Below are positions 5,987-42,421 of a DNA stretch of 64,000 nucleotides, in pieces. A program made the translations under genes and the position numbers. The DNA comes from Dehalococcoidia bacterium (GTDB lineage Bacteria > Chloroflexota > Dehalococcoidia > Lucifugimonadales > UBA2985). The DNA lies in the NCBI GenBank assembly GCA_963580875.1, contig CAUZMC010000002.1, forward strand, positions 6,865-70,864, written 5' to 3'. The notes beneath the pieces are model-generated. The model was not told the origin of the DNA. It did not search any database and saw only the letters and a program-made list of their open reading frames with translations. How positions within the stretch are numbered: position 1 is the first letter of the stretch; each line of letters opens with the position of its first letter.

Positions 5987-7651
5987 ATGGCCCAGATCAG
6001 TGGTGGAGAAGTCTTCGGTCGTGCGCTCAAACAAGAGGGCGTGGAATATGTATTCTCCTTGAATGGCGGGCATATCTACACTCTTTATGAGGGGTGTGAG
6101 GACAATGGGATCAAGGTTGTTGATTTCAGGCATGAGCAAGCCGCCGCCCACGCCGCAGAGGGTTGGGCTAAGGTTACTGGCAAACCTGGGGTGTGTATTG
6201 TCACCGCAGGGCCAGGCGTTACAGGTACAGTAACGGCGGTTGCCAACGCTTATCAATCCAACAGCCCGATGGTAGTGATTGGTGGCAATTCATCTGTCAG
6301 AGAGCGTCTCATGAGCGCTCTGCAAGAATTTGACGGTGTGGCGCTGATGAGTTCCATTACCAAATGGTCACATCAGGTGCAAGATGTAAAGCGGATACCA
6401 GATTTTGTGGCCACTGCGTTTCGAATGGCTACCAGCGGAAAACCTGGTCCAGTCTATCTTGAGATTCCCACCGATATAGTGAATGGAAAATTAGAAGAGG
6501 AAGAGCTTGTTCTTCCCACCGGATATCGCACAAAGGCGCGTGTATATCCTGACCCGGAATACATTCGTAAGATTGCGGAGGTACTCAAGGAATCAAAACA
6601 CCCAGTGGTTGTTGCGGGCAGTGATATATGGTGGTCTAAGGCATGGGATGAGCTTCGGGAATTTGTTGAGCTAATAGATGCACCGGTGTTCCTAAACTCC
6701 ATGGGTCGGGGTGCTCTTCCCTCGGATCATCCCAATGTAGGCAGCACCGGACGGCGCTACTCATTGGTAAATGCCGATGCGATTTTGCTAGTCGGTACTC
6801 CCATAGACTTTCGTCTGAGTTTTGGACGGGAGGTTCTGTTCAACAAGGATGCCAAGGTAATCCAGATGATGATGGATGGTGAGGAAATTGGAAAAAATCG
6901 CCACATAGACATTGGTGTTGTTGGGGACGTCAAGGCAATGCTGCAAATGACTATGGACGAGCTTAGGTCCTTAGGTTACCGCTCCCATGGGAGGGAATGG
7001 CTTGAGGAGGTGATGACGGAGGATAAAGTCCTCAAGGAACCTGACGAAGCCATGCTCAACAGCAATCAGATGCCAATCCATCCCATGAGACTTATGAAAG
7101 AGATGAGGGATTTCCTGGATAGGGACGCCACCGTCGTTGGTGATGGTGGCGACATCGTTACTTTTGCTGCCAGAGTGATAGGGATTAACGAGCCGGGCCA
7201 CTGGCTGGATCCAGGAATGTTCGGTTGTCTTGGGCCTGGCTCCGGATTTGCCATTGCGGCTCAGTTGGCACGGCCTGGAAAACAAGTGGCGATAGTATTC
7301 GGCGATGGGGCTTTTGGACTCAACGGCATGGATATGGAGAGTATGGTGCGCCATAAGCTGCCTGTCGTTGCTATAGTCGGGAACAACGGGACGTGGAATC
7401 AGACCACACAAGGTGTTATACGGAGAACTGGGCGCGCCATAGGGACGTTCCTTTCTCAGGAAACACGCTATGACATGATTATGCAGGGATTCGGTGGTTA
7501 TGGAGAACGTGTGACAGACCCGGATCAGATACGGCCAGCTCTTGAGCGGGCTTTCAACTCCGGTACAGCTGCTCTGCTGGACGTGGTTATTGATCCAGAT
7601 GTGTCCTACGGAGATATGGGTGGGCGGTCCAGACAAGTGCGTCAGTACTAG
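5987..7651 (+). CDS. thiamine-diphosphate-dependent enzyme (acetolactate synthase / oxalyl-CoA decarboxylase / 2-hydroxyacyl-CoA lyase family)
   Basis: Track ORF starts at 5960. The ATG at 5987 has AAGGAGG 6 nt upstream. N-terminal Pyr domain is FRHEQAAAHAAEGWAKVTGKPGVCIVTAGPG. The ThDP motif GDGAFGLNGMDMESMVRHKLPVVAIVGNNGTWN looks, by eye, closer to Oxc/HACL than to ALS. Confidence 0.85.
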   Translation: MAQISGGEVFGRALKQEGVEYVFSLNGGHIYTLYEGCEDNGIKVVDFRHEQAAAHAAEGWAKVTGKPGVCIVTAGPGVTGTVTAVANAYQSNSPMVVIGGNSSVRERLMSALQEFDGVALMSSITKWSHQVQDVKRIPDFVATAFRMATSGKPGPVYLEIPTDIVNGKLEEEELVLPTGYRTKARVYPDPEYIRKIAEVLKESKHPVVVAGSDIWWSKAWDELREFVELIDAPVFLNSMGRGALPSDHPNVGSTGRRYSLVNADAILLVGTPIDFRLSFGREVLFNKDAKVIQMMMDGEEIGKNRHIDIGVVGDVKAMLQMTMDELRSLGYRSHGREWLEEVMTEDKVLKEPDEAMLNSNQMPIHPMRLMKEMRDFLDRDATVVGDGGDIVTFAARVIGINEPGHWLDPGMFGCLGPGSGFAIAAQLARPGKQVAIVFGDGAFGLNGMDMESMVRHKLPVVAIVGNNGTWNQTTQGVIRRTGRAIGTFLSQETRYDMIMQGFGGYGERVTDPDQIRPALERAFNSGTAALLDVVIDPDVSYGDMGGRSRQVRQY

Positions 7652-35513: not shown

Positions 35514-36047
35514 TTACTTCATAGATTTGATTCCGTGTTCCGCTTTGTGAGTGGCGCTGAGAACCAATTGCATGGCTTCACTCACTTTTCCCAGTTCAAG
35601 CTGAGACAGTGCGGCTAGTCGATCCTCCCACCGTGAGCGCCGCGCCGCAATGAGTCCATTCCCCAGCACATTTCCATGATTCGTTAGGCTGCACAGCACA
35701 GAGCGGCGGTCATCCGGATCCGTCCAGCGATTCACGAGTTCCTTTTCCACCAATCGGTCTACTAGGCCTGTTGCCCTTGACATGGAAATATCCAGATTAG
35801 AGGCCACATCACTCATACGCAGTGATGTCTCTTGAAGCAGAAGGAAGACCACCCTGACCTGCGGCATACTTAAATCCAGAGTGAACCACTCTGGAGACAC
35901 CACGCGTGGTAGAGAGTGGGTCACTTCATCCAGGATATTTACGACTTGGGTCAGCAGATAGCCCCTGGATTGTTGAGCGTCAGGCGAGGCCGATTTAGAT
36001 TTTTGCAACATTTCATAATACCTGTATATTTCAAATAACTGTAACAA
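35514..36047 (-). CDS. MarR-family transcriptional regulator
   Basis: Winged-HTH pattern LSMPQVRVVFLLLQETSLRMSDVASNLDISMSRATGLVDRLVEKELVNRWTDPDDRRSVLCSLTNHG. The start is uncertain (TTG at 36047 or ATG at 36011). Confidence 0.85.
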   Translation of the reverse strand: MLQLFEIYRYYEMLQKSKSASPDAQQSRGYLLTQVVNILDEVTHSLPRVVSPEWFTLDLSMPQVRVVFLLLQETSLRMSDVASNLDISMSRATGLVDRLVEKELVNRWTDPDDRRSVLCSLTNHGNVLGNGLIAARRSRWEDRLAALSQLELGKVSEAMQLVLSATHKAEHGIKSMK

Positions 36048-36079: not shown

Positions 36080-36189
36080 AATATTTGGATTTTTGAGGTT
36101 TAAAAAAAATGCATTTGTGGTACATTGGTGGTCAGTGAAAAAGGGATTTGGTATATTAGAATTAGCTCATAGTATTTTGCGGAGGGAAT

Positions 36190-38502
36190 ATGCTGGATTA
36201 TAAGCCAAACATTGTGTTGTCTAATAAGGAATTTAAAGTTGTAGGCACGAGGCCCATACGCCATGATGGATGGGACAAGGTGACGGGTCGTGCTAGGTAT
36301 GCCAATGACGTTGCCATGGCTGGCATGCTCTACGGGAAAATTCTGCGCAGTCCTCATGCCCATGCCATAATCAAAAAGATTGATTATAGCAAGGCTCTCA
36401 AATTGCCTGGTGTTCAGGCAGTGGTAACGGCCGAAGATATGCCGAACCTTTCTGCCAGACTGGTGGATCAGGAAGAGGGCGCAATGGCCAACACCGGATT
36501 TCGCAGTCGTAATGTCATGGCAAGAGAAAAGGCTCTTTATATTGGACATGCAATAGCGGCGGTGGCTGCTACAAGTCAGCACATTGCCGAAGAGGCTTTA
36601 GCACTTATAGATGTTGAGTACGAGGTGTTGACTCCGGTAATAACACCTGCCGCAGCCATGAAGGAAGATGCCCCTATTATTCATGAATTGTTGATCGCAA
36701 AGTCGAGCGCAAGTGGGCCTGGTGGATTGGGCGATGAACCAGCGGAGAAAGGCACCAATGTTGCCAATCGCTTCGAGTTTCGGCTTGGTGATACAGACGA
36801 AGGATTTAAAGAAGCCGACATTATAGTGGAGCGTGAGTTTCACACCAAGCGTGTACATCAAGGATACATAGAGCCACATGCAGCTACTGGAATGTGGGGC
36901 ATGGATGGATATGTGACCATATGGACGAGCACTCAGCAATTGTTTGGCGTGCGTGAGGACTGCGCAACGTTACTGGGATTGCCAACGTCAGGAGTAAAGA
37001 TCATACCAATGGAGATCGGCGGCGGCTTTGGAGCTAAGGGGACAAGCTACTTGCCAGCGGTGGTCGCTTTACTTTCCAAGAAAAGTGGCAAGCCGGTTAA
37101 GATTGCCATGAGTCGGACCGAGGTGTTCATGGCGACCGGCCCAACTTCCAGTGCTGACATCAAGGTCAAAATGGGAGTTAACAAAGATGGTCGGATAACC
37201 GCTGCAGAGGCACACTTGATTTACGAGGCAGGAGCTTTCCCAGGTTCATCTGTAGGTGGTGGAGCACGCTGTATGTTTACTCCCTACAACATACCTAACG
37301 GTTACATTGAGGCCTTTGATGTGTTATGTAACACTCCAAAAGTGGCTGCGTACCGTGCTCCTGGCGCTCCAATGGCCTCATTTGCAGTTGAGCAGGTCGT
37401 GGATGAGTTGAGCCAGAAACTCTCAATGGATCCTCTAGAGTTCCGTATGCTCAATGCGGCCAGTGAGGGGACACGACAGATTACAGGCCCACTGATAGGC
37501 AATGTTGGTCATATGGAGACCTTGGAAGCTACCAGAGCTCACCCACACTACTCAGCGCCGTTGGGAGGGCCCAACAGAGGTCGCGGTATAGCATCAGGCT
37601 TTTGGGGTAACGGCTCCGGTCCTGCAAGTGCCATAGCAAGTGTGAATGCGGACGGCAGCATAAGCCTTATAGAGGGTGCACCGGATGTTGGTGGAAGTAG
37701 AGCTGCAATGGCCATGCAAGTAGCTGAGGCGTTGGGAATAGCTTCTGAGGATATTAGACCTTCCATTGGAGACACGGACTCAATCGGTTTCAGTACAGGT
37801 GCGGGAGGAAGCGGCGTAACTCAGAAAGTTGGAGCCGCCTGCTATCTAGCCGCTCAGGATGTTAAACAGCAGATGGTGGTGCGGGCTGCCAAAATCTGGG
37901 ATATCCCCGCTGACGAAGTTGAGTATGAGGATGGCGTAATCAAAAGCAAGACGGACTCTGAATTGAAAATAACTTTCAAGGATTTGTCTGCTAAGCTGAA
38001 TGCAACCGGTGGCCCTGTCACAGGACGTGCCAACCTCAACCCTGGAGGAGCTGGGGCTGCCTTCGCTCTCAATATAGTAGACGTTGAAGTGGACCCAGAG
38101 ACTGGCAAAGTAACCATTCTTCGGTTCACGGCGATTCAGGACGTTGGTAAGGCCATTCACCCAAGTTATGTGGAAGGTCAGATCCAGGGTGCCTCGGTCC
38201 AGGGGATTGGATGGGCATTGAACGAGGAGTACTTCTATAACGACAATGGTCAGATGATGAATGCCAGCTTCCTTGACTATCGTATGCCGATAAGCTTGGA
38301 CTTGCCTATGATAGACACAGTGCTTGTGGAAGTTGCCAACCCCGGGCATCCATACGGTGTCCGTGGCGTCGGTGAGGTCTCTCTTGTTCCCGTGATGGGG
38401 GCAATTGCCAACGCAATTCAAAATGCCACGGGCGTTAGAATGACTAGCATGCCAATGTCCCCAGGACGTATAATGAAAGAGATAGACGAGGCAAGCAAAT
38501 AG
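36190..38502 (+). CDS. molybdopterin-binding large subunit of a xanthine dehydrogenase / aldehyde oxidase-family molybdenum hydroxylase
   Basis: 770 aa with GGAGGG upstream. The a/b-hammerhead N-terminus is VGTRPIRHDGWDKVTGRARYANDV..MLYGKILRSPHAHA.I..ID. Mo-cofactor blocks are GGGFGAK, AAYRAPGAPMASFAVEQVVDEL and GVGEVSLVPVMGAIANAI. It lacks the CODH-type VAYRCSFR/AYRGAGR loop. Confidence 0.9.
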   Translation: MLDYKPNIVLSNKEFKVVGTRPIRHDGWDKVTGRARYANDVAMAGMLYGKILRSPHAHAIIKKIDYSKALKLPGVQAVVTAEDMPNLSARLVDQEEGAMANTGFRSRNVMAREKALYIGHAIAAVAATSQHIAEEALALIDVEYEVLTPVITPAAAMKEDAPIIHELLIAKSSASGPGGLGDEPAEKGTNVANRFEFRLGDTDEGFKEADIIVEREFHTKRVHQGYIEPHAATGMWGMDGYVTIWTSTQQLFGVREDCATLLGLPTSGVKIIPMEIGGGFGAKGTSYLPAVVALLSKKSGKPVKIAMSRTEVFMATGPTSSADIKVKMGVNKDGRITAAEAHLIYEAGAFPGSSVGGGARCMFTPYNIPNGYIEAFDVLCNTPKVAAYRAPGAPMASFAVEQVVDELSQKLSMDPLEFRMLNAASEGTRQITGPLIGNVGHMETLEATRAHPHYSAPLGGPNRGRGIASGFWGNGSGPASAIASVNADGSISLIEGAPDVGGSRAAMAMQVAEALGIASEDIRPSIGDTDSIGFSTGAGGSGVTQKVGAACYLAAQDVKQQMVVRAAKIWDIPADEVEYEDGVIKSKTDSELKITFKDLSAKLNATGGPVTGRANLNPGGAGAAFALNIVDVEVDPETGKVTILRFTAIQDVGKAIHPSYVEGQIQGASVQGIGWALNEEYFYNDNGQMMNASFLDYRMPISLDLPMIDTVLVEVANPGHPYGVRGVGEVSLVPVMGAIANAIQNATGVRMTSMPMSPGRIMKEIDEASK

Positions 38503-38518
38503 ACACGGGAAGGTAACT

Positions 38519-38788
38519 ATGCCAGAAGTATGGATGTCACCAAGAATGCAGAGGTTTAGTGGTGGAAAAGAGAAGGTTCAGGTAGTAGGTGCTACCGTAC
38601 GTCAGGTTGTTAACAACCTGGAAAAAGAGTACCCGGGTATCAAAGGTGAGTTGTGCGAAGAAGAGGATATCGATCCTGGTATAGCGGTGGTTATAGATGG
38701 TGAAACATCAAACCTTGGCATGCTTGAACGCGTGAATGAAGACAGCGAGATCCACTTTATTCCGGCTATGTCGGGTGGCTCAGACTGA
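38519..38788 (+). CDS. MoaD/ThiS-family ubiquitin-like (beta-grasp) protein with a two-residue extension after the Gly-Gly
   Basis: 89 aa with GGAAGG upstream. It has the MoaD-like layout (..VQVVGATVRQVVNNLEKEYPGIKGEL ... IAVVIDGE ... EDSEIHFIPAMSGG) and ends in GG-SD. Confidence 0.7.
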   Translation: MPEVWMSPRMQRFSGGKEKVQVVGATVRQVVNNLEKEYPGIKGELCEEEDIDPGIAVVIDGETSNLGMLERVNEDSEIHFIPAMSGGSD

Positions 38789-38813
38789 AATCGCTTTTTC
38801 AGAGTAGGTTTCT

Positions 38814-38850
38814 AATACAGGGTGGCTAAGCAGCCACCCTGTATTAGTTT
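38814..38850 (+). terminator. intrinsic-terminator-like hairpin after the Mo-enzyme/MoaD-like pair
   Basis: AATACAGGGTGGCT-AAGC-AGCCACCCTGTATT is a perfect 14-bp stem, followed by AGTTT. The T-tract is weak. Confidence 0.6.
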
Positions 38851-38941: not shown

Positions 38942-40240
38942 TTGCAAAGGAAACTAAGTATAACTGTGCCTGTAAAAAAGAAAATCTTCTATGGATGGTA
39001 CATTGTAGCTGGTAGTGTCGGGCTTAATTTTTACCTATCCATTGTGTTCTTCCAGGGATTCCAGGTGTTCTTCCTTCCAATTCTCCAAGAGTTCGGATGG
39101 ACCAGGGCAATGACCTCCGGAGCGTTTTCACTGCGTCAACTTGAGAGCGGCCTTTTGGCCCCCGTGATCGGTTTTCTTGTGGATCGGTGGGGTGCTAAGG
39201 TAGTCATCGTGACGGGTGTGATTGTAGGTGGGCTGGGAATGATTATGATTGGCTATGCCAATTCTCTCTTTACATTCTATCTAGCCTTCCTGATTACTTC
39301 GTTGGGAGTGAGCGGTGCTTCTCATGGCGTTTCCTGGGCAGTTGCCGTTGCCAACTGGTTTAACAAGCTACGTGGACGTGCATTGGGAATTGCAATGCTA
39401 GGTCCTGTGATAGGAGGCCCGTTCATAGTTCTAGTAACAGTACTAGAAGGACTGCTTGGATGGCGCGTATCTATGATAGTAATGGGAACTGGGCTGATTG
39501 TTGTGGGTGTCCCGCTTGGTTTTGTGGCACGCTCCAGACCGGAACCCTATGGATACCTCCAAGATGGAGCTACGCCAGACGAAACAGGCGAATGGGAGGA
39601 AACTGAAGCAGGTAAAAGCGTGCCAGCAATTGTCGAAGCTTTAGAAGGATTCACGGTGAGACAGGCTGTTAACACACGTGATTTCTGGGTCCTCATAATT
39701 CTGTTTGCTGCTGTATTCATGGGTATTAGCGGTCTGATGGTACATCTAATACCCATGCTTGAGGACATGGACTATAGTTCTGCACAGGCGGCGAGCATTC
39801 TGGGCATTATGTTTCTGCTCAGTGGGATAGGTAGAATTAGCTCCGGATTTTTGGCTGACATGATTGATTTCAGAGTGGTCATGGCCGGCCTCATATTATT
39901 CCAATTGGTAGGACTGTTTCTTCTCACCTTGGTTGGACCTTCCCAAATCTGGCTTGTGGGCTTGTTTATACTGCTCTTCGGTATAGGTTTCGGTGGCACC
40001 ATACCCCTTCGCCCATTTCTCATCATGCAGATATTTGGAGCACGTTCATTTGGATCTCTCCAGGGATTGGTGCAGGGAGGCGCAATCGGTGCTGGGATGA
40101 TGGGACCGGTTTTCTACGGTTGGATCTTCGACACCACGGGCTCATACAATATTGCTATATATGTTTCCATTGCAACAATCCTGATGGCTTTTCCTCTACT
40201 ATTTTTGATGAAGAAACCACAGTCTGTGTCAACATGTTAA
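38942..40240 (+). CDS. MFS transporter, oxalate/formate-antiporter-like (OFA/monocarboxylate type)
   Basis: 432 aa with a TTG start; the exact start is uncertain. N-terminus is FYGWYIVAGSVGLNFY and the loop is GFLVDRWGAK. About 12 hydrophobic helices are split by a central acidic loop. Confidence 0.82.
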   Translation: MQRKLSITVPVKKKIFYGWYIVAGSVGLNFYLSIVFFQGFQVFFLPILQEFGWTRAMTSGAFSLRQLESGLLAPVIGFLVDRWGAKVVIVTGVIVGGLGMIMIGYANSLFTFYLAFLITSLGVSGASHGVSWAVAVANWFNKLRGRALGIAMLGPVIGGPFIVLVTVLEGLLGWRVSMIVMGTGLIVVGVPLGFVARSRPEPYGYLQDGATPDETGEWEETEAGKSVPAIVEALEGFTVRQAVNTRDFWVLIILFAAVFMGISGLMVHLIPMLEDMDYSSAQAASILGIMFLLSGIGRISSGFLADMIDFRVVMAGLILFQLVGLFLLTLVGPSQIWLVGLFILLFGIGFGGTIPLRPFLIMQIFGARSFGSLQGLVQGGAIGAGMMGPVFYGWIFDTTGSYNIAIYVSIATILMAFPLLFLMKKPQSVSTC

Positions 40241-40359
40241 ATGTGAAGTTTCTGATATTATCTGTCTGATGTATCCATAAAAAGCTTCTATGATGTAGAA
40301 TTACGACTCTTATGGCGATATTTGAATGGCCAAATCGTCCGTCATGAAGGAGGTGTGGT

Positions 40360-41487
40360 TTGGCACTTGAAATAGATGCAGAGAGAGTCCTTGTTGACGC
40401 CAAACAACTTGAGCAGTTCGTCGTCACTGTATTTATAACGCTTGGATTAACAGAGGCCAACGCTCGTGATGCGGCTATTGTCCTTGTTAAATCTGATATC
40501 TACGGTATAGAGTCCCATGGAGTGCCGAGGCTGGCTGGCTACGTGAACCGGCTCAAAAGCGGTGCTTTACAGGCTAATCCTGAGGTTATTGTTGTCCGTG
40601 AACTGCCATCAACGGCGCTTATGGATGGAGGCAATGGACTGGGAATGATTGTGGGTCAGCGCGCCATGGAAGTGGCAATCAGCAAGGCCAATGACACTGG
40701 GGCTGGTTTTGTATCTGTACGAAACAGCTCTCATTTTGGTATAGCGGGCTTTTATGCCAGAATGGCTCTTGAGCATGACATGATCGGCTTTTGTATGACA
40801 AACGTTGGCAACGGCGGGAATACTCCCCCAACCGGGGGGAGCACAGGGTTCTTTGGAACCAATCCTATAGCGGTGGCTGCTCCGACCGAGACGCCTCCGG
40901 CCTTCGTGATGGACTTTGCAACTACGGTAGTGGCATCAGGGAAGCTTCAGATTGCTCAGAGACGCAACCATGAGGTACCTCTTGGATGGATCATTAATGG
41001 CGATGGGATTCCTTCTACAAACCCTGCCGAACGGCACGGTGGAGGCTACATTCTTCCACTTGGCGGCCTGAGTGAGACCAGCGGCCATAAGGGATATGGT
41101 TTCCTTCTCCTAGTGGATATCCTTTCTGGTGTCCTTTCAGGTGCCGCGGTTGGGGCTACAGCCTCCAAGTTGGCTACGGAAGGTGTAGAATACGAACGTT
41201 CGCGCTCAGATGGTGCTGGAGACAATACGGGCCATTTTTTCGGAGCGTTGCGCGTGGACGGTTTCCGTCCTGTTGAGGAGTTTAAGGCAGAGATGGATGA
41301 GATGTTTCGCGTTATACGTAGATCTGAGAAGTTGCCAGGATGGGAGCGCATCTACGTTCACGGTGAGATGGAGTGGGAAGCGGAGCGTGACCGTCTTGCC
41401 AATGGAATCCCTTTGGACTTGCCCACATATAAATCACTTGAGGGAGTCTCTGCTGACTTGAACATTCCGTTGAATGTAAAAATATAA
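40360..41487 (+). CDS. Ldh_2-family oxidoreductase (malate / L-sulfolactate / ureidoglycolate dehydrogenase family)
   Basis: 375 aa with a TTG start after GGAGGTG. Family blocks are SDIYGIESHGVPRLAGYV, VRNSSHFGIAGFYA, GTNPIAVAAP and LPLGG...HKGYG. Confidence 0.82.
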   Translation: MALEIDAERVLVDAKQLEQFVVTVFITLGLTEANARDAAIVLVKSDIYGIESHGVPRLAGYVNRLKSGALQANPEVIVVRELPSTALMDGGNGLGMIVGQRAMEVAISKANDTGAGFVSVRNSSHFGIAGFYARMALEHDMIGFCMTNVGNGGNTPPTGGSTGFFGTNPIAVAAPTETPPAFVMDFATTVVASGKLQIAQRRNHEVPLGWIINGDGIPSTNPAERHGGGYILPLGGLSETSGHKGYGFLLLVDILSGVLSGAAVGATASKLATEGVEYERSRSDGAGDNTGHFFGALRVDGFRPVEEFKAEMDEMFRVIRRSEKLPGWERIYVHGEMEWEAERDRLANGIPLDLPTYKSLEGVSADLNIPLNVKI

Positions 41488-41497
41488 GGAGGAAAAT

Positions 41498-42421
41498 ATG
41501 AAACTGGTGCTATTCGGTGAAGATTTTAGGCTTGGAGTTCTTCATGGAGAGACTGTTGTAGACGCTTCCTCTGTGGCTAATGAGATACCACATTATACGC
41601 CTCAGGATATGATGAACCGACTCATTGAGGATTTTGACAAATATAGAAGTGCCTTGGAGCGTCTGGCGGGTAGTTCTTCTGGTGTGCCCGTTGGCGAAGT
41701 ACGTCTTCGTGCGCCGCTACCACGTCCGGCGAGATTGGCGTGCATGGCGGTAAACTACATGGAGAGTGAGGCACAGACTGAGCCTCCTCCAATCAACGCC
41801 TTTAACAAGTCGTCTAGTAGTGTAATTGGCAATGGGGACACAGTAGTGCTTCCAGATATCCCTGCTACTATCTTTGAGCATGAAGCGGAACTGGGCATCG
41901 TTATAGGTAAGAGAGCCAGTGCTATAAAGGAAAAGGATGCCTACAATCATATATTTGGCTACGTTAACTTCATGGATGTCTCAAGCCGTGGGGTTGGTCC
42001 TGCCGGACGTGACAGTTTCTTCATAGGCAAATCATGGGACACATTTGGACCAATGGGACCAGCCTTGGTAACAGCGGATGAAGTAGCAGACCCACTAGAC
42101 CTGCCAGTACGGCTGAGTGTTCAGGGAGATCTCAGGCAGGACTATCGCACCAGCGGCATGGCTCATAAGATTCCAGAGATGTTGGAGTGGATTACTTGTA
42201 TCACTACTCTTGAGCCGGGTGACGTGGTTGCGTGTGGGACTAACCATCGTGGGCTTGGCCCCCTTCAGGACGGTGATACCGTTGAGATGGAGATCAGTAA
42301 CTTTGGCAAACTCACAGTTAACGTGACAGATGTAAAGAAGCGGCTATGGCCGCGTGAGACACGCGCTCAGAAAGAAGCTCTGGAAGCAGAGAGAGGAAAT
42401 AGGGTTTTTAAAAAAACCTAG
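41498..42421 (+). CDS. fumarylacetoacetate hydrolase (FAH)-family protein (2-keto-4-pentenoate hydratase / oxaloacetate-type decarboxylase-like)
   Basis: 307 aa with AGGAGG upstream. FAH C-terminal domain blocks are present (CMAVNY, FEHEAELGIVIGKRA, IFGYVNFMDVSSR, GKSWDTFGPMGPALVT, GDVVACGT). Confidence 0.82.
   Translation: MKLVLFGEDFRLGVLHGETVVDASSVANEIPHYTPQDMMNRLIEDFDKYRSALERLAGSSSGVPVGEVRLRAPLPRPARLACMAVNYMESEAQTEPPPINAFNKSSSSVIGNGDTVVLPDIPATIFEHEAELGIVIGKRASAIKEKDAYNHIFGYVNFMDVSSRGVGPAGRDSFFIGKSWDTFGPMGPALVTADEVADPLDLPVRLSVQGDLRQDYRTSGMAHKIPEMLEWITCITTLEPGDVVACGTNHRGLGPLQDGDTVEMEISNFGKLTVNVTDVKKRLWPRETRAQKEALEAERGNRVFKKT

Follow-up and report, generated by a model that had tools for sequence, protein, structure and literature searches.

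Some sulfur carriers end in a Gly-Gly followed by further residues, and these extra residues are trimmed by a JAMM peptidase, as in the QbsE/QbsD and HcyS/HcyD pairs. PdtH/PdtG is a further carrier system of the JAMM-trimmed kind (PMC1779556). MoaD genes have also been found strictly adjacent to the genes of tungsten AOR enzymes (PMC1779556; Iyer, Burroughs and Aravind 2006), and in Aromatoleum aromaticum AorD and AorE are MoaD-like putative maturation factors of the tungsten cofactor that are absent from the purified enzyme (PMC6365974). Enzymes of the xanthine dehydrogenase (XDH) or CoxL kind are mentioned nowhere in the former article (PMC1779556). In the case of the Rhodobacter capsulatus XDH, XdhC and the cysteine desulfurase NifS4 sulfurate and insert the molybdenum cofactor (Moco), and a review of 2026 on the sulfido ligand lists no other proteins for bacteria, and no MoaD or sulfur carrier (PMC13653126). 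Here we describe a gene pair in which a carrier-type protein is tied to an XDH-family enzyme. The pair lies in a 64,000-nt stretch of DNA from a Dehalococcoidia bacterium (hereafter the window; positions 6865-70864 of contig C2, in an assembly of 1.31 Mb, 57 contigs and 96% completeness). It consists of L, the molybdenum-binding large subunit, and T, a protein of the ThiS/MoaD type; the FAD and [2Fe-2S] subunits of such enzymes are called M and S. T is the conserved fourth gene of one XDH-family operon clade, M-S-L-T, and this operon is split in the source genome. T is very probably a conserved, enzyme-specific accessory of the carrier type. The L-T pairing was not found described in the literature on MoaD-type carriers, XDH-family enzymes or SAR202, and an enzyme-linked carrier of the MoaD/CysO type is now seen for the XDH family.

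The AOR-linked MoaD genes offer a parallel to T. They too are small MoaD/ThiS-family genes tied to one pterin-cofactor oxidoreductase, apart from the main Moco operon, and they too are read as cofactor maturation factors. However, their partner is a tungsten bis-pterin AOR of unrelated fold, whereas the partner of T is an XDH/CoxL-family molybdenum enzyme. Moreover, AOR clusters often contain MoeB, MoaE or MoaA, and L-T loci contain none of them. We take the likeness as an analogy, not as membership.

The linkage between L and T is far beyond chance. A scan of one genome per species gave at least 530 T loci, and neighbourhoods were counted on the best 80 of them, which span Chloroflexota, Poribacteria and Entotheonellaceae. 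In 74 of these 80 loci T is immediately preceded by L in the same orientation, with a median gap of 24.5 nt (43 gaps do not exceed 30 nt), and the flanks beyond the pair are not conserved. In ten of the more distant loci, Poribacteria included, the order is coxM-coxS-coxL-T; independent gene calls with Pfam labels give FAD_binding_5, Fer2_2, L and ThiS in this order. This places T where maturation genes such as xdhC are located in xdhABC and paoABCD operons. A second sample of 151 Dehalococcoidia genomes was taken evenly to avoid a bias toward close relatives. Here T is present in 53 genomes and in 36 of the 111 genera, nearly always as a single copy. Because the scores of L orthologs and paralogs overlap and do not separate them in this class-wide sample, match coordinates and 20 fetched contexts were used: 50 of the 57 T genes have an XDH-family gene as their direct neighbour, and another 4 lie 0.7-2.6 kb from one. 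The arrangements seen are L-T, M-S-L-T, L-L-T, T-L (genomes G110, G048 and G147) and M-S-T. Among the small-genome relatives in the taxonomic order of the source genome, M-S-L-T, L-L-T and L-T are all present.

In a maximum-likelihood tree of L proteins, 58 T-linked members without M and S, the source L among them, form one clade (approximate likelihood-ratio test, aLRT, 99). Its sister group consists of nine L proteins from M-S-L-T operons (aLRT 94), and the four other L paralogs of the source genome fall outside both T-linked groups. A single loss of the linkage to M and S, as suggested by the tree of the best 80 loci, was rejected: the wider sample mixes L-T, L-L-T and M-S-L-T within one order, and the linkage has therefore changed more than once. 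The likely history is an ancestral M-S-L-T operon in which the link to M and S was broken repeatedly and the tie to T persisted.

A few loci deviate from the common arrangements. Three M-S-T modules have no L within 4 kb (L105 in G060:C26, L106 in G155:C1 and L110 in G137:C12) and look like stand-alone electron-transfer modules that retain the carrier gene. Two tandem L paralogs followed by one T are seen at L083, L112 (G055), L118 (G090) and G118:C1:1532428-1537468. At L100 (G032:C1:792000-799000) the order is M-S-L-T; the frames of M, S and L are each in many pieces, owing either to decay of the operon or to indel errors in a single-contig assembly. An apparent L-T fusion, an 846-amino-acid frame in G164, was discarded, because the long frame is an artefact of high-GC DNA and L and T are read in different frames there.

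A preliminary description of the window, made by a model from the sequence alone, had reported a 770-amino-acid molybdenum subunit followed after 16 nt by an 89-amino-acid beta-grasp protein of MoaD/ThiS layout that ends GG-SD. The open reading frames (ORFs) and the spacer were confirmed, and the family assignment agrees with a score of 32.1 bits against PF02597 (ThiS; cut-off 22.5) and with the predicted fold. T homologs carry precomputed PF02597 matches. The AlphaFold2 model of T, with 25 homologs in the alignment, is a beta-grasp (pLDDT 88, pTM 0.78) in which the C-terminal residues 86-89 are disordered. When this model was compared with known structures by Foldseek, the CysO structure 4n6e_B came first (TM 0.87) and 3dwg_C second, the CysO matches ranging from 0.86 to 0.87; a Thermus MoaD-related protein, SAMP1, Urm1 and MoaD followed, and the probability was 1.0 for CysO and for these four alike. 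The same two CysO structures were best in the sequence-profile search (hmmsearch; E = 1e-11 and 4e-7). Identity between T and the CysO proteins is 19-27%. The specific NCBIfam models stayed under their cut-offs, namely SAMP1 NF041918 (39.9 vs 60 bits, the best NCBIfam match), Urm1-like NF053661 (29 vs 70 bits), archaeal-type MoaD TIGR01687 (34.2 vs 49.5 bits) and bacterial MoaD TIGR01682 (17 vs 66.15 bits). Since CysO is nearest by both profile and fold and no specific model reaches its cut-off, T represents an unnamed ThiS/MoaD subfamily closest to CysO. Sources label the T homologs as Dehalococcoidia, Chloroflexota or SAR202, and the current annotation of the family is either molybdopterin synthase sulfur carrier subunit or MoaD/ThiS family protein; the former label is probably mistaken. 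The ATG at 38519 is supported as the start of T by the invariant residue W5 and the conserved N-terminal MPEVW.

CysO, known from the CysO-CysM-Mec+-MoeZ system of M. tuberculosis (PDB 3dwg, 3dwm) and the Amycolatopsis BexX complex (4n6e), has the C-terminal Gly-Gly in common with T, and its dependence on an E1 enzyme and a JAMM peptidase would apply to T as well. Unlike CysO, T is never next to a cysteine synthase. The CysO-type linkage to CysM, a Mec+ JAMM and MoeZ is not seen for T; in the source genome a CysM-like gene adjoins the E1 on contig C3.

The C-terminus of T reads ...IHFIPAMSGGSD, that is, Gly-Gly followed by Ser-Asp. The Gly-Gly is thus present but capped, and adenylation of the putative carrier would need trimming. 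Of 241 T-family members, 240 have the Gly-Gly, in a motif H-[FY]-[IL]-x-[AS]-[IMLV]-x-GG. The tail behind it shows no sequence conservation and ranges from 0 to 16 residues: there is no residue after Gly-Gly in 32% of the members, one in 31%, two in 20%, three in 8% and 4-16 in 9%. Even relatives that are 84-88% identical to T end in GG, GG-SS, GG-SA, GG-SG or GG-SV. A near-invariant Gly-Gly with a tail that is free to vary favours a trimmed pro-form; in other words, the alignment fits a tail that is a pro-peptide, removed before activation of the Gly-Gly. The preliminary description had made conservation of the GG-SD ending in orthologs a test of its carrier proposal. The Gly-Gly part holds and the Ser-Asp part does not, and it is this very pattern that favours a carrier.

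The source genome has four ThiS-family genes (Table 1). Because MoaD-MoaE, ThiS and CysO-like genes all exist separately, T is not a housekeeping carrier. For the same reason it was rejected as the housekeeping MoaD, a MoaD-MoaE pair being present on contig C7. A pairing of T with MoaE was not seen either: the lone MoaE of the genome is on C7 beside another ThiS-family gene, and none is near T in the surveyed loci. The CysO-like protein on C15 is far closer to CysO than T is. It is encoded in a set of three genes (C15:16267-18158), comprising a PALP enzyme with an N-terminal Cys-rich, zinc-ribbon-like stretch, a 94-amino-acid NIL-domain protein and the carrier; the set looks like a protein-thiocarboxylate-dependent route to cysteine or homocysteine.

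A carrier with residues after Gly-Gly would need a JAMM peptidase and an E1, for both of which the preliminary description had proposed a search of the genome, and exactly one of each was found. The single ThiF-family E1 (C3:7673-8551) is beside a CysM/CysK-like gene, and the single Prok-JAB (JAMM) peptidase (C9:4689-5093) has the motif HxHx7Sx2D. Two residues follow Gly-Gly in three of the four carriers, MoaD (GG-VA), the CysO-like protein (GG-AW) and T (GG-SD). For this reason the lone JAMM peptidase plausibly matures all three tailed carriers, and Moco synthesis itself may depend on JAMM trimming in this streamlined genome. Carriers of the QbsE/HcyS/PdtH type resemble T in having Gly-Gly plus a short extension, and the source genome has the one JAMM and one E1 that such carriers use. 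However, those systems cluster the carrier, the JAMM and the E1, whereas the JAMM and E1 genes of the source genome are unlinked. Furthermore, those systems make thio-metabolites or homocysteine, and the JAMM and E1 of the source genome probably serve three tailed carriers (MoaD, CysO-like and T) at once.

L has the three domains, the catalytic Glu and the Gln/Glu motif of the xanthine oxidase/CoxL family. The domains Ald_Xan_dh_C, MoCoBD_1 and MoCoBD_2 were found with Pfam E-values of 1e-31 to 1e-66; no FeS domain fused within L was found in the same search. The motifs VHQGYIEP, MEIGGGFG, AAYRAPG and RGVGE are intact, and the Glu of RGVGE aligns with the active-site region of the alpha subunit of 4-hydroxybenzoyl-CoA reductase (4-HBCR). 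The nearest NCBIfam and PDB relatives are 4-HBCR alpha, XdhA, glyceraldehyde dehydrogenase alpha and CoxL; every nearest NCBIfam model is far under its equivalog cut-off. The CoxL of form I aerobic CO dehydrogenase has the active-site loop AYXCSFR with a Cu-binding Cys. In L the loop is AAYRAPGAP, without Cys, and the CoxL models score 322-328 bits vs cut-offs of 950-991, so that L does not match form I CoxL on either count. An insertion at residues 175-187 of L was considered as a docking site for T; it is also present in L paralogs that are not T-linked and so is not diagnostic.

No CoxS-like or CoxM-like gene lies within the window, as the preliminary description had stated and as Fer2_2 and phmmer searches confirmed. 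This absence is real at the locus, yet not peculiar to it. A hidden Markov model search of the whole genome with Fer2_2 gave one match, on contig C17, and phmmer with the CoxM and CoxS of C17 gave only self-matches. The inventory of the source genome is five L (one each on C2, C17 and C47 and two on C12), one S and one M, the sole coxM and coxS being in the M-S-L operon of C17. Identity among the five L paralogs is 51-67%, and every motif is intact in each of them. The orphan L paralogs at C47:146-2434, C12:8018-10348 and C12:34520-36844 have no M, S or T neighbour; T accompanies one of the four orphan L genes, or one of the five L paralogs. Similar proportions are found elsewhere. Ten complete or near-complete relatives have 5-11 L vs 2-3 S genes, at least two S genes are present in all 26 near-complete relatives that carry the L-T pair, and L paralogs exceed S genes 2- to 5-fold across the lineage. 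Given these gene counts and the similarity of the paralogs, the simplest reading is that one electron-transfer module would serve several catalytic L paralogs.

Our preferred reading, held tentatively and at somewhat less than an even chance, is that T is an enzyme-dedicated thiocarboxylate carrier for cofactor maturation, which probably supplies the Mo=S ligand, and that L uses the M and S encoded on C17. T would be made as a pro-form ending GG-SD, and its tail would be trimmed by the single JAMM peptidase of the genome. The exposed Gly-Gly would then be adenylated by the single MoeB/ThiF-type E1 and converted to a thiocarboxylate. The flexible C-terminus of T would deliver the sulfur during maturation of the molybdenum cofactor of L, the likeliest acceptor being the terminal Mo=S ligand that XDH-family hydroxylases require. 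L would borrow CoxM and CoxS of C17 in trans, as would the three other orphan L paralogs. The preliminary description had likewise proposed a dedicated carrier or maturation factor; a genuine beta-grasp carrier-type protein tied to L stands, and the trimming, the thiocarboxylate and the sulfur acceptor are what we infer from the Gly-Gly, the variable tail and the gene content. XdhC resembles T as an accessory encoded behind XDH-family structural genes and is needed to install Mo=S. Yet it is unrelated to T and receives persulfide sulfur. A single XdhC gene is present in the source genome, on contig C4, and T was accordingly rejected as its replacement. T would be an additional or alternative route beside XdhC.

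Several points weigh against this proposal. First, we know of no experiment or structure that ties a ThiS-family thiocarboxylate to Mo=S formation, and a second sulfuration route is not obviously needed in a genome that has XdhC. Second, only one of the five L paralogs has T, and a general maturation need should extend to the others. Third, the L-T pair has no conserved E1, JAMM or sulfurtransferase neighbour in the surveyed loci, and three of the 57 T genes in the class-wide sample have no XDH-family neighbour. Finally, the sharing of M and S among L paralogs is deduced from gene counts, and a second coxMS may sit in the missing 4% of the genome.

In a milder form of the co-substrate idea discussed below, likelier than that idea though still rather unlikely, the tail of T would reach down the substrate funnel to sulfurate or re-sulfurate the molybdenum centre that is buried in the folded enzyme. 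If true, this would make it the first route by which bacteria repair desulfo enzymes in vivo.

T could alternatively be a second MoaD that works with the lone MoaE to insert the dithiolene sulfurs and so raises the supply of pterin cofactor for L. Several sources annotate the T family as a molybdopterin synthase sulfur carrier, TIGR01687 scores 34 bits, MoaD structures are among the fold matches, and the AOR-linked MoaD paralogs, usually read in this way, are a precedent (PMC1779556, PMC6365974). Nevertheless we consider it unlikely, because MoaD-MoaE is encoded elsewhere, T is nearer to CysO by sequence and by fold, and no MoaE travels with T. In fact neither MoaE nor MoaA nor MoeA accompanies T in any surveyed locus, and the bacterial MoaD model TIGR01682 gives 17 bits vs a cut-off of 66.

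An equally doubtful alternative is that T carries out no sulfur chemistry and serves L as a partner in structure or assembly, as a chaperone or as a removable plug, its Gly-Gly being kept only for docking of the tail into L. Its tight coupling to L, its single copy per genome and the lack of a dedicated E1 or JAMM gene at the locus agree with such a role. A passive partner is nonetheless unlikely, because the near-invariant Gly-Gly and the disposable tail point to C-terminal activation; they are the hallmark of C-terminally activated carriers, unlike a docking peptide. The preliminary description had gone further and considered T as a structural partner that replaces the usual small subunits, which is contradicted by its position after complete coxM-coxS-coxL operons in relatives. 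Many operons contain T as well as M and S, so that T is no substitute for them. Three of the four orphan L genes of the source genome have no T, and M-S-T modules without L exist.

It is improbable that T is a ubiquitin-like modifier of the SAMP/TtuB type, whose Gly-Gly would, after trimming, be attached to lysines in L or other proteins so as to regulate them. SAMP1 is the best NCBIfam match (39.9 bits) and the Urm1-like model scores 29 bits, SAMP1 and Urm1 structures are among the fold matches, and both an E1 and a JAMM peptidase are encoded in the genome. However, the scores fall short of the respective cut-offs (60 and 70 bits), the locus has no linked factors specific to conjugation, sulfur carriage comes first in the known dual-function systems, and conjugation would leave the tie of T to one enzyme clade unexplained.

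We give little credence to the idea that the T thiocarboxylate is a co-substrate, reloading Mo=S while the sulfur passes to an organic substrate to form a C-S bond or a thio-acid. A metallopterin ergothioneine synthase, fused to a cysteine desulfurase, does transfer sulfur to a C-H position (PMC9516567), trimmed-tail thiocarboxylate carriers serve thio-metabolite pathways such as those of PDTC and quinolobactin (PMC1779556), and T has its best structural match in the BexX/CysO complex 4n6e. Against this, L retains the standard hydroxylase motifs, with the catalytic Glu in RGVGE and the Gln/Glu in VHQGYIEP, and the neighbouring genes look catabolic rather than biosynthetic (MFS, Ldh_2 and FAH here; DHDPS, hydrolase and MR_MLE in relatives). 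Moreover, a stoichiometric donor would be expected near an E1 in some cases and never is in the surveyed loci. If true, M-S-L-T enzymes would be XDH-family enzymes that form C-S bonds or thio-acids with a protein-bound sulfur co-substrate.

That the adjacency is meaningless and T a housekeeping carrier of the CysO or MoaD type is very improbable, although the CysO proteins as closest solved relatives and the three stand-alone T genes of the class-wide sample might point to it. Adjacency in 74 of 80 loci and for 50 of 57 T genes, in three phyla and with otherwise unconserved flanks, all but refutes this reading, and separate MoaD, ThiS and CysO-like genes are already present where they would be expected.

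Without the terminal Mo=S ligand, XDH-family enzymes have no activity. In this respect T is a concrete candidate for a second bacterial route of Mo=S sulfuration or repair, tied to one enzyme clade, and the L-T pairing makes bacterial Moco sulfuration or repair directly testable. T is present in about a third of the sampled Dehalococcoidia genomes, and in Poribacteria and Entotheonellaceae as well. SAR202-type bacteria have many L genes and few FeS/FAD modules, including stand-alone M-S-T units. This suggests a mix-and-match enzyme design for the oxidation of diverse dissolved organic compounds in the deep ocean.

Table 1. Features of the L-T locus and carrier genes of the source genome (window positions unless a contig is named)
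Feature	Location	Strand	Basis or context
MarR-family regulator, divergent, heading a minus-strand MFS cluster	35514-36047	-	Pfam MarR
Promoter-like site: TGGTCA, 17 nt, TATATT, with TG before the -10	36129-36157	+	consensus scan only
L, XDH/CoxL-family molybdopterin-binding large subunit, 770 amino acids	36190-38502	+	ORF, Pfam
L-T spacer, 16 nt	38503-38518	+	sequence
Ribosome-binding site GGGAAGG, inside the spacer, 5 nt before the ATG of T	38507-38513	+	read from sequence
T, CysO/MoaD-type beta-grasp sulfur-carrier-family protein, 89 amino acids	38519-38788	+	ORF, PF02597
Gly-Gly codons of T	38774-38779	+	
Ser-Asp tail codons of T	38780-38785	+	
Stop codon of T	38786-38788	+	
Perfect 15-bp hairpin, 4-nt loop, 24 nt after the stop of T	38813-38846	+	RNA fold
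MoaD, ends GG-VA	C7:21927-22606		overlaps MoaE
ThiS, ends GGG	C43:4494-4697		beside a ThiO-like gene
CysO-like carrier, ends GG-AW	C15:17877-18158		beside a threonine-synthase-like PALP enzyme and a NIL-domain protein
T, ends GG-SD	C2		beside L

The hairpin behind T is likely the end of the L-T transcript. It had been noticed in the preliminary description, where the stem was given as 14 bp; the perfect stem is one base pair longer. The fold of the 85-nt region has an energy of -35.7 kcal/mol (z = -5.2 vs shuffles); the hairpin has no T-run and was not called by the terminator scan. Support for the promoter-like site, located in the 142-bp divergent region common to L and the MarR gene, is weak, the number of matches in the consensus scan being that expected from shuffles. 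The MarR gene is not a conserved neighbour of the L-T pair at other loci.

Downstream of the pair (38942-42421) are genes for a lactate-type MFS transporter, an Ldh_2-family dehydrogenase and an FAH-family hydrolase. The nearest relatives (L011, L013 and L016) also have this block behind L-T; it is not seen further out. Downstream of M-S-L-T operons are DHDPS-family, alpha/beta-hydrolase and MR_MLE genes. With low confidence, both sets of neighbours resemble non-phosphorylative, aldehyde-yielding catabolism of sugar acids or keto acids, and on this basis L may, with equally low confidence, be an aldehyde oxidoreductase.

Two other neighbourhoods were seen among the surveyed loci. In L054, L055, L056 and L066, T (around 6001-6270; 1890-2156 in L056) has no upstream L and is beside a divergent BKACE-family gene and a conserved 93-amino-acid ORF without a known domain. 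In 12 loci of one subclade (L029, L031, L034-L036, L038-L041, L043, L044 and L046), a divergent ATP sulfurylase gene (PUA_2 and ATP-sulfurylase domains; at about 0.3-3.2 kb in each locus) is found upstream of L-T, which may reflect lineage synteny or be a hint on the sulfur supply.

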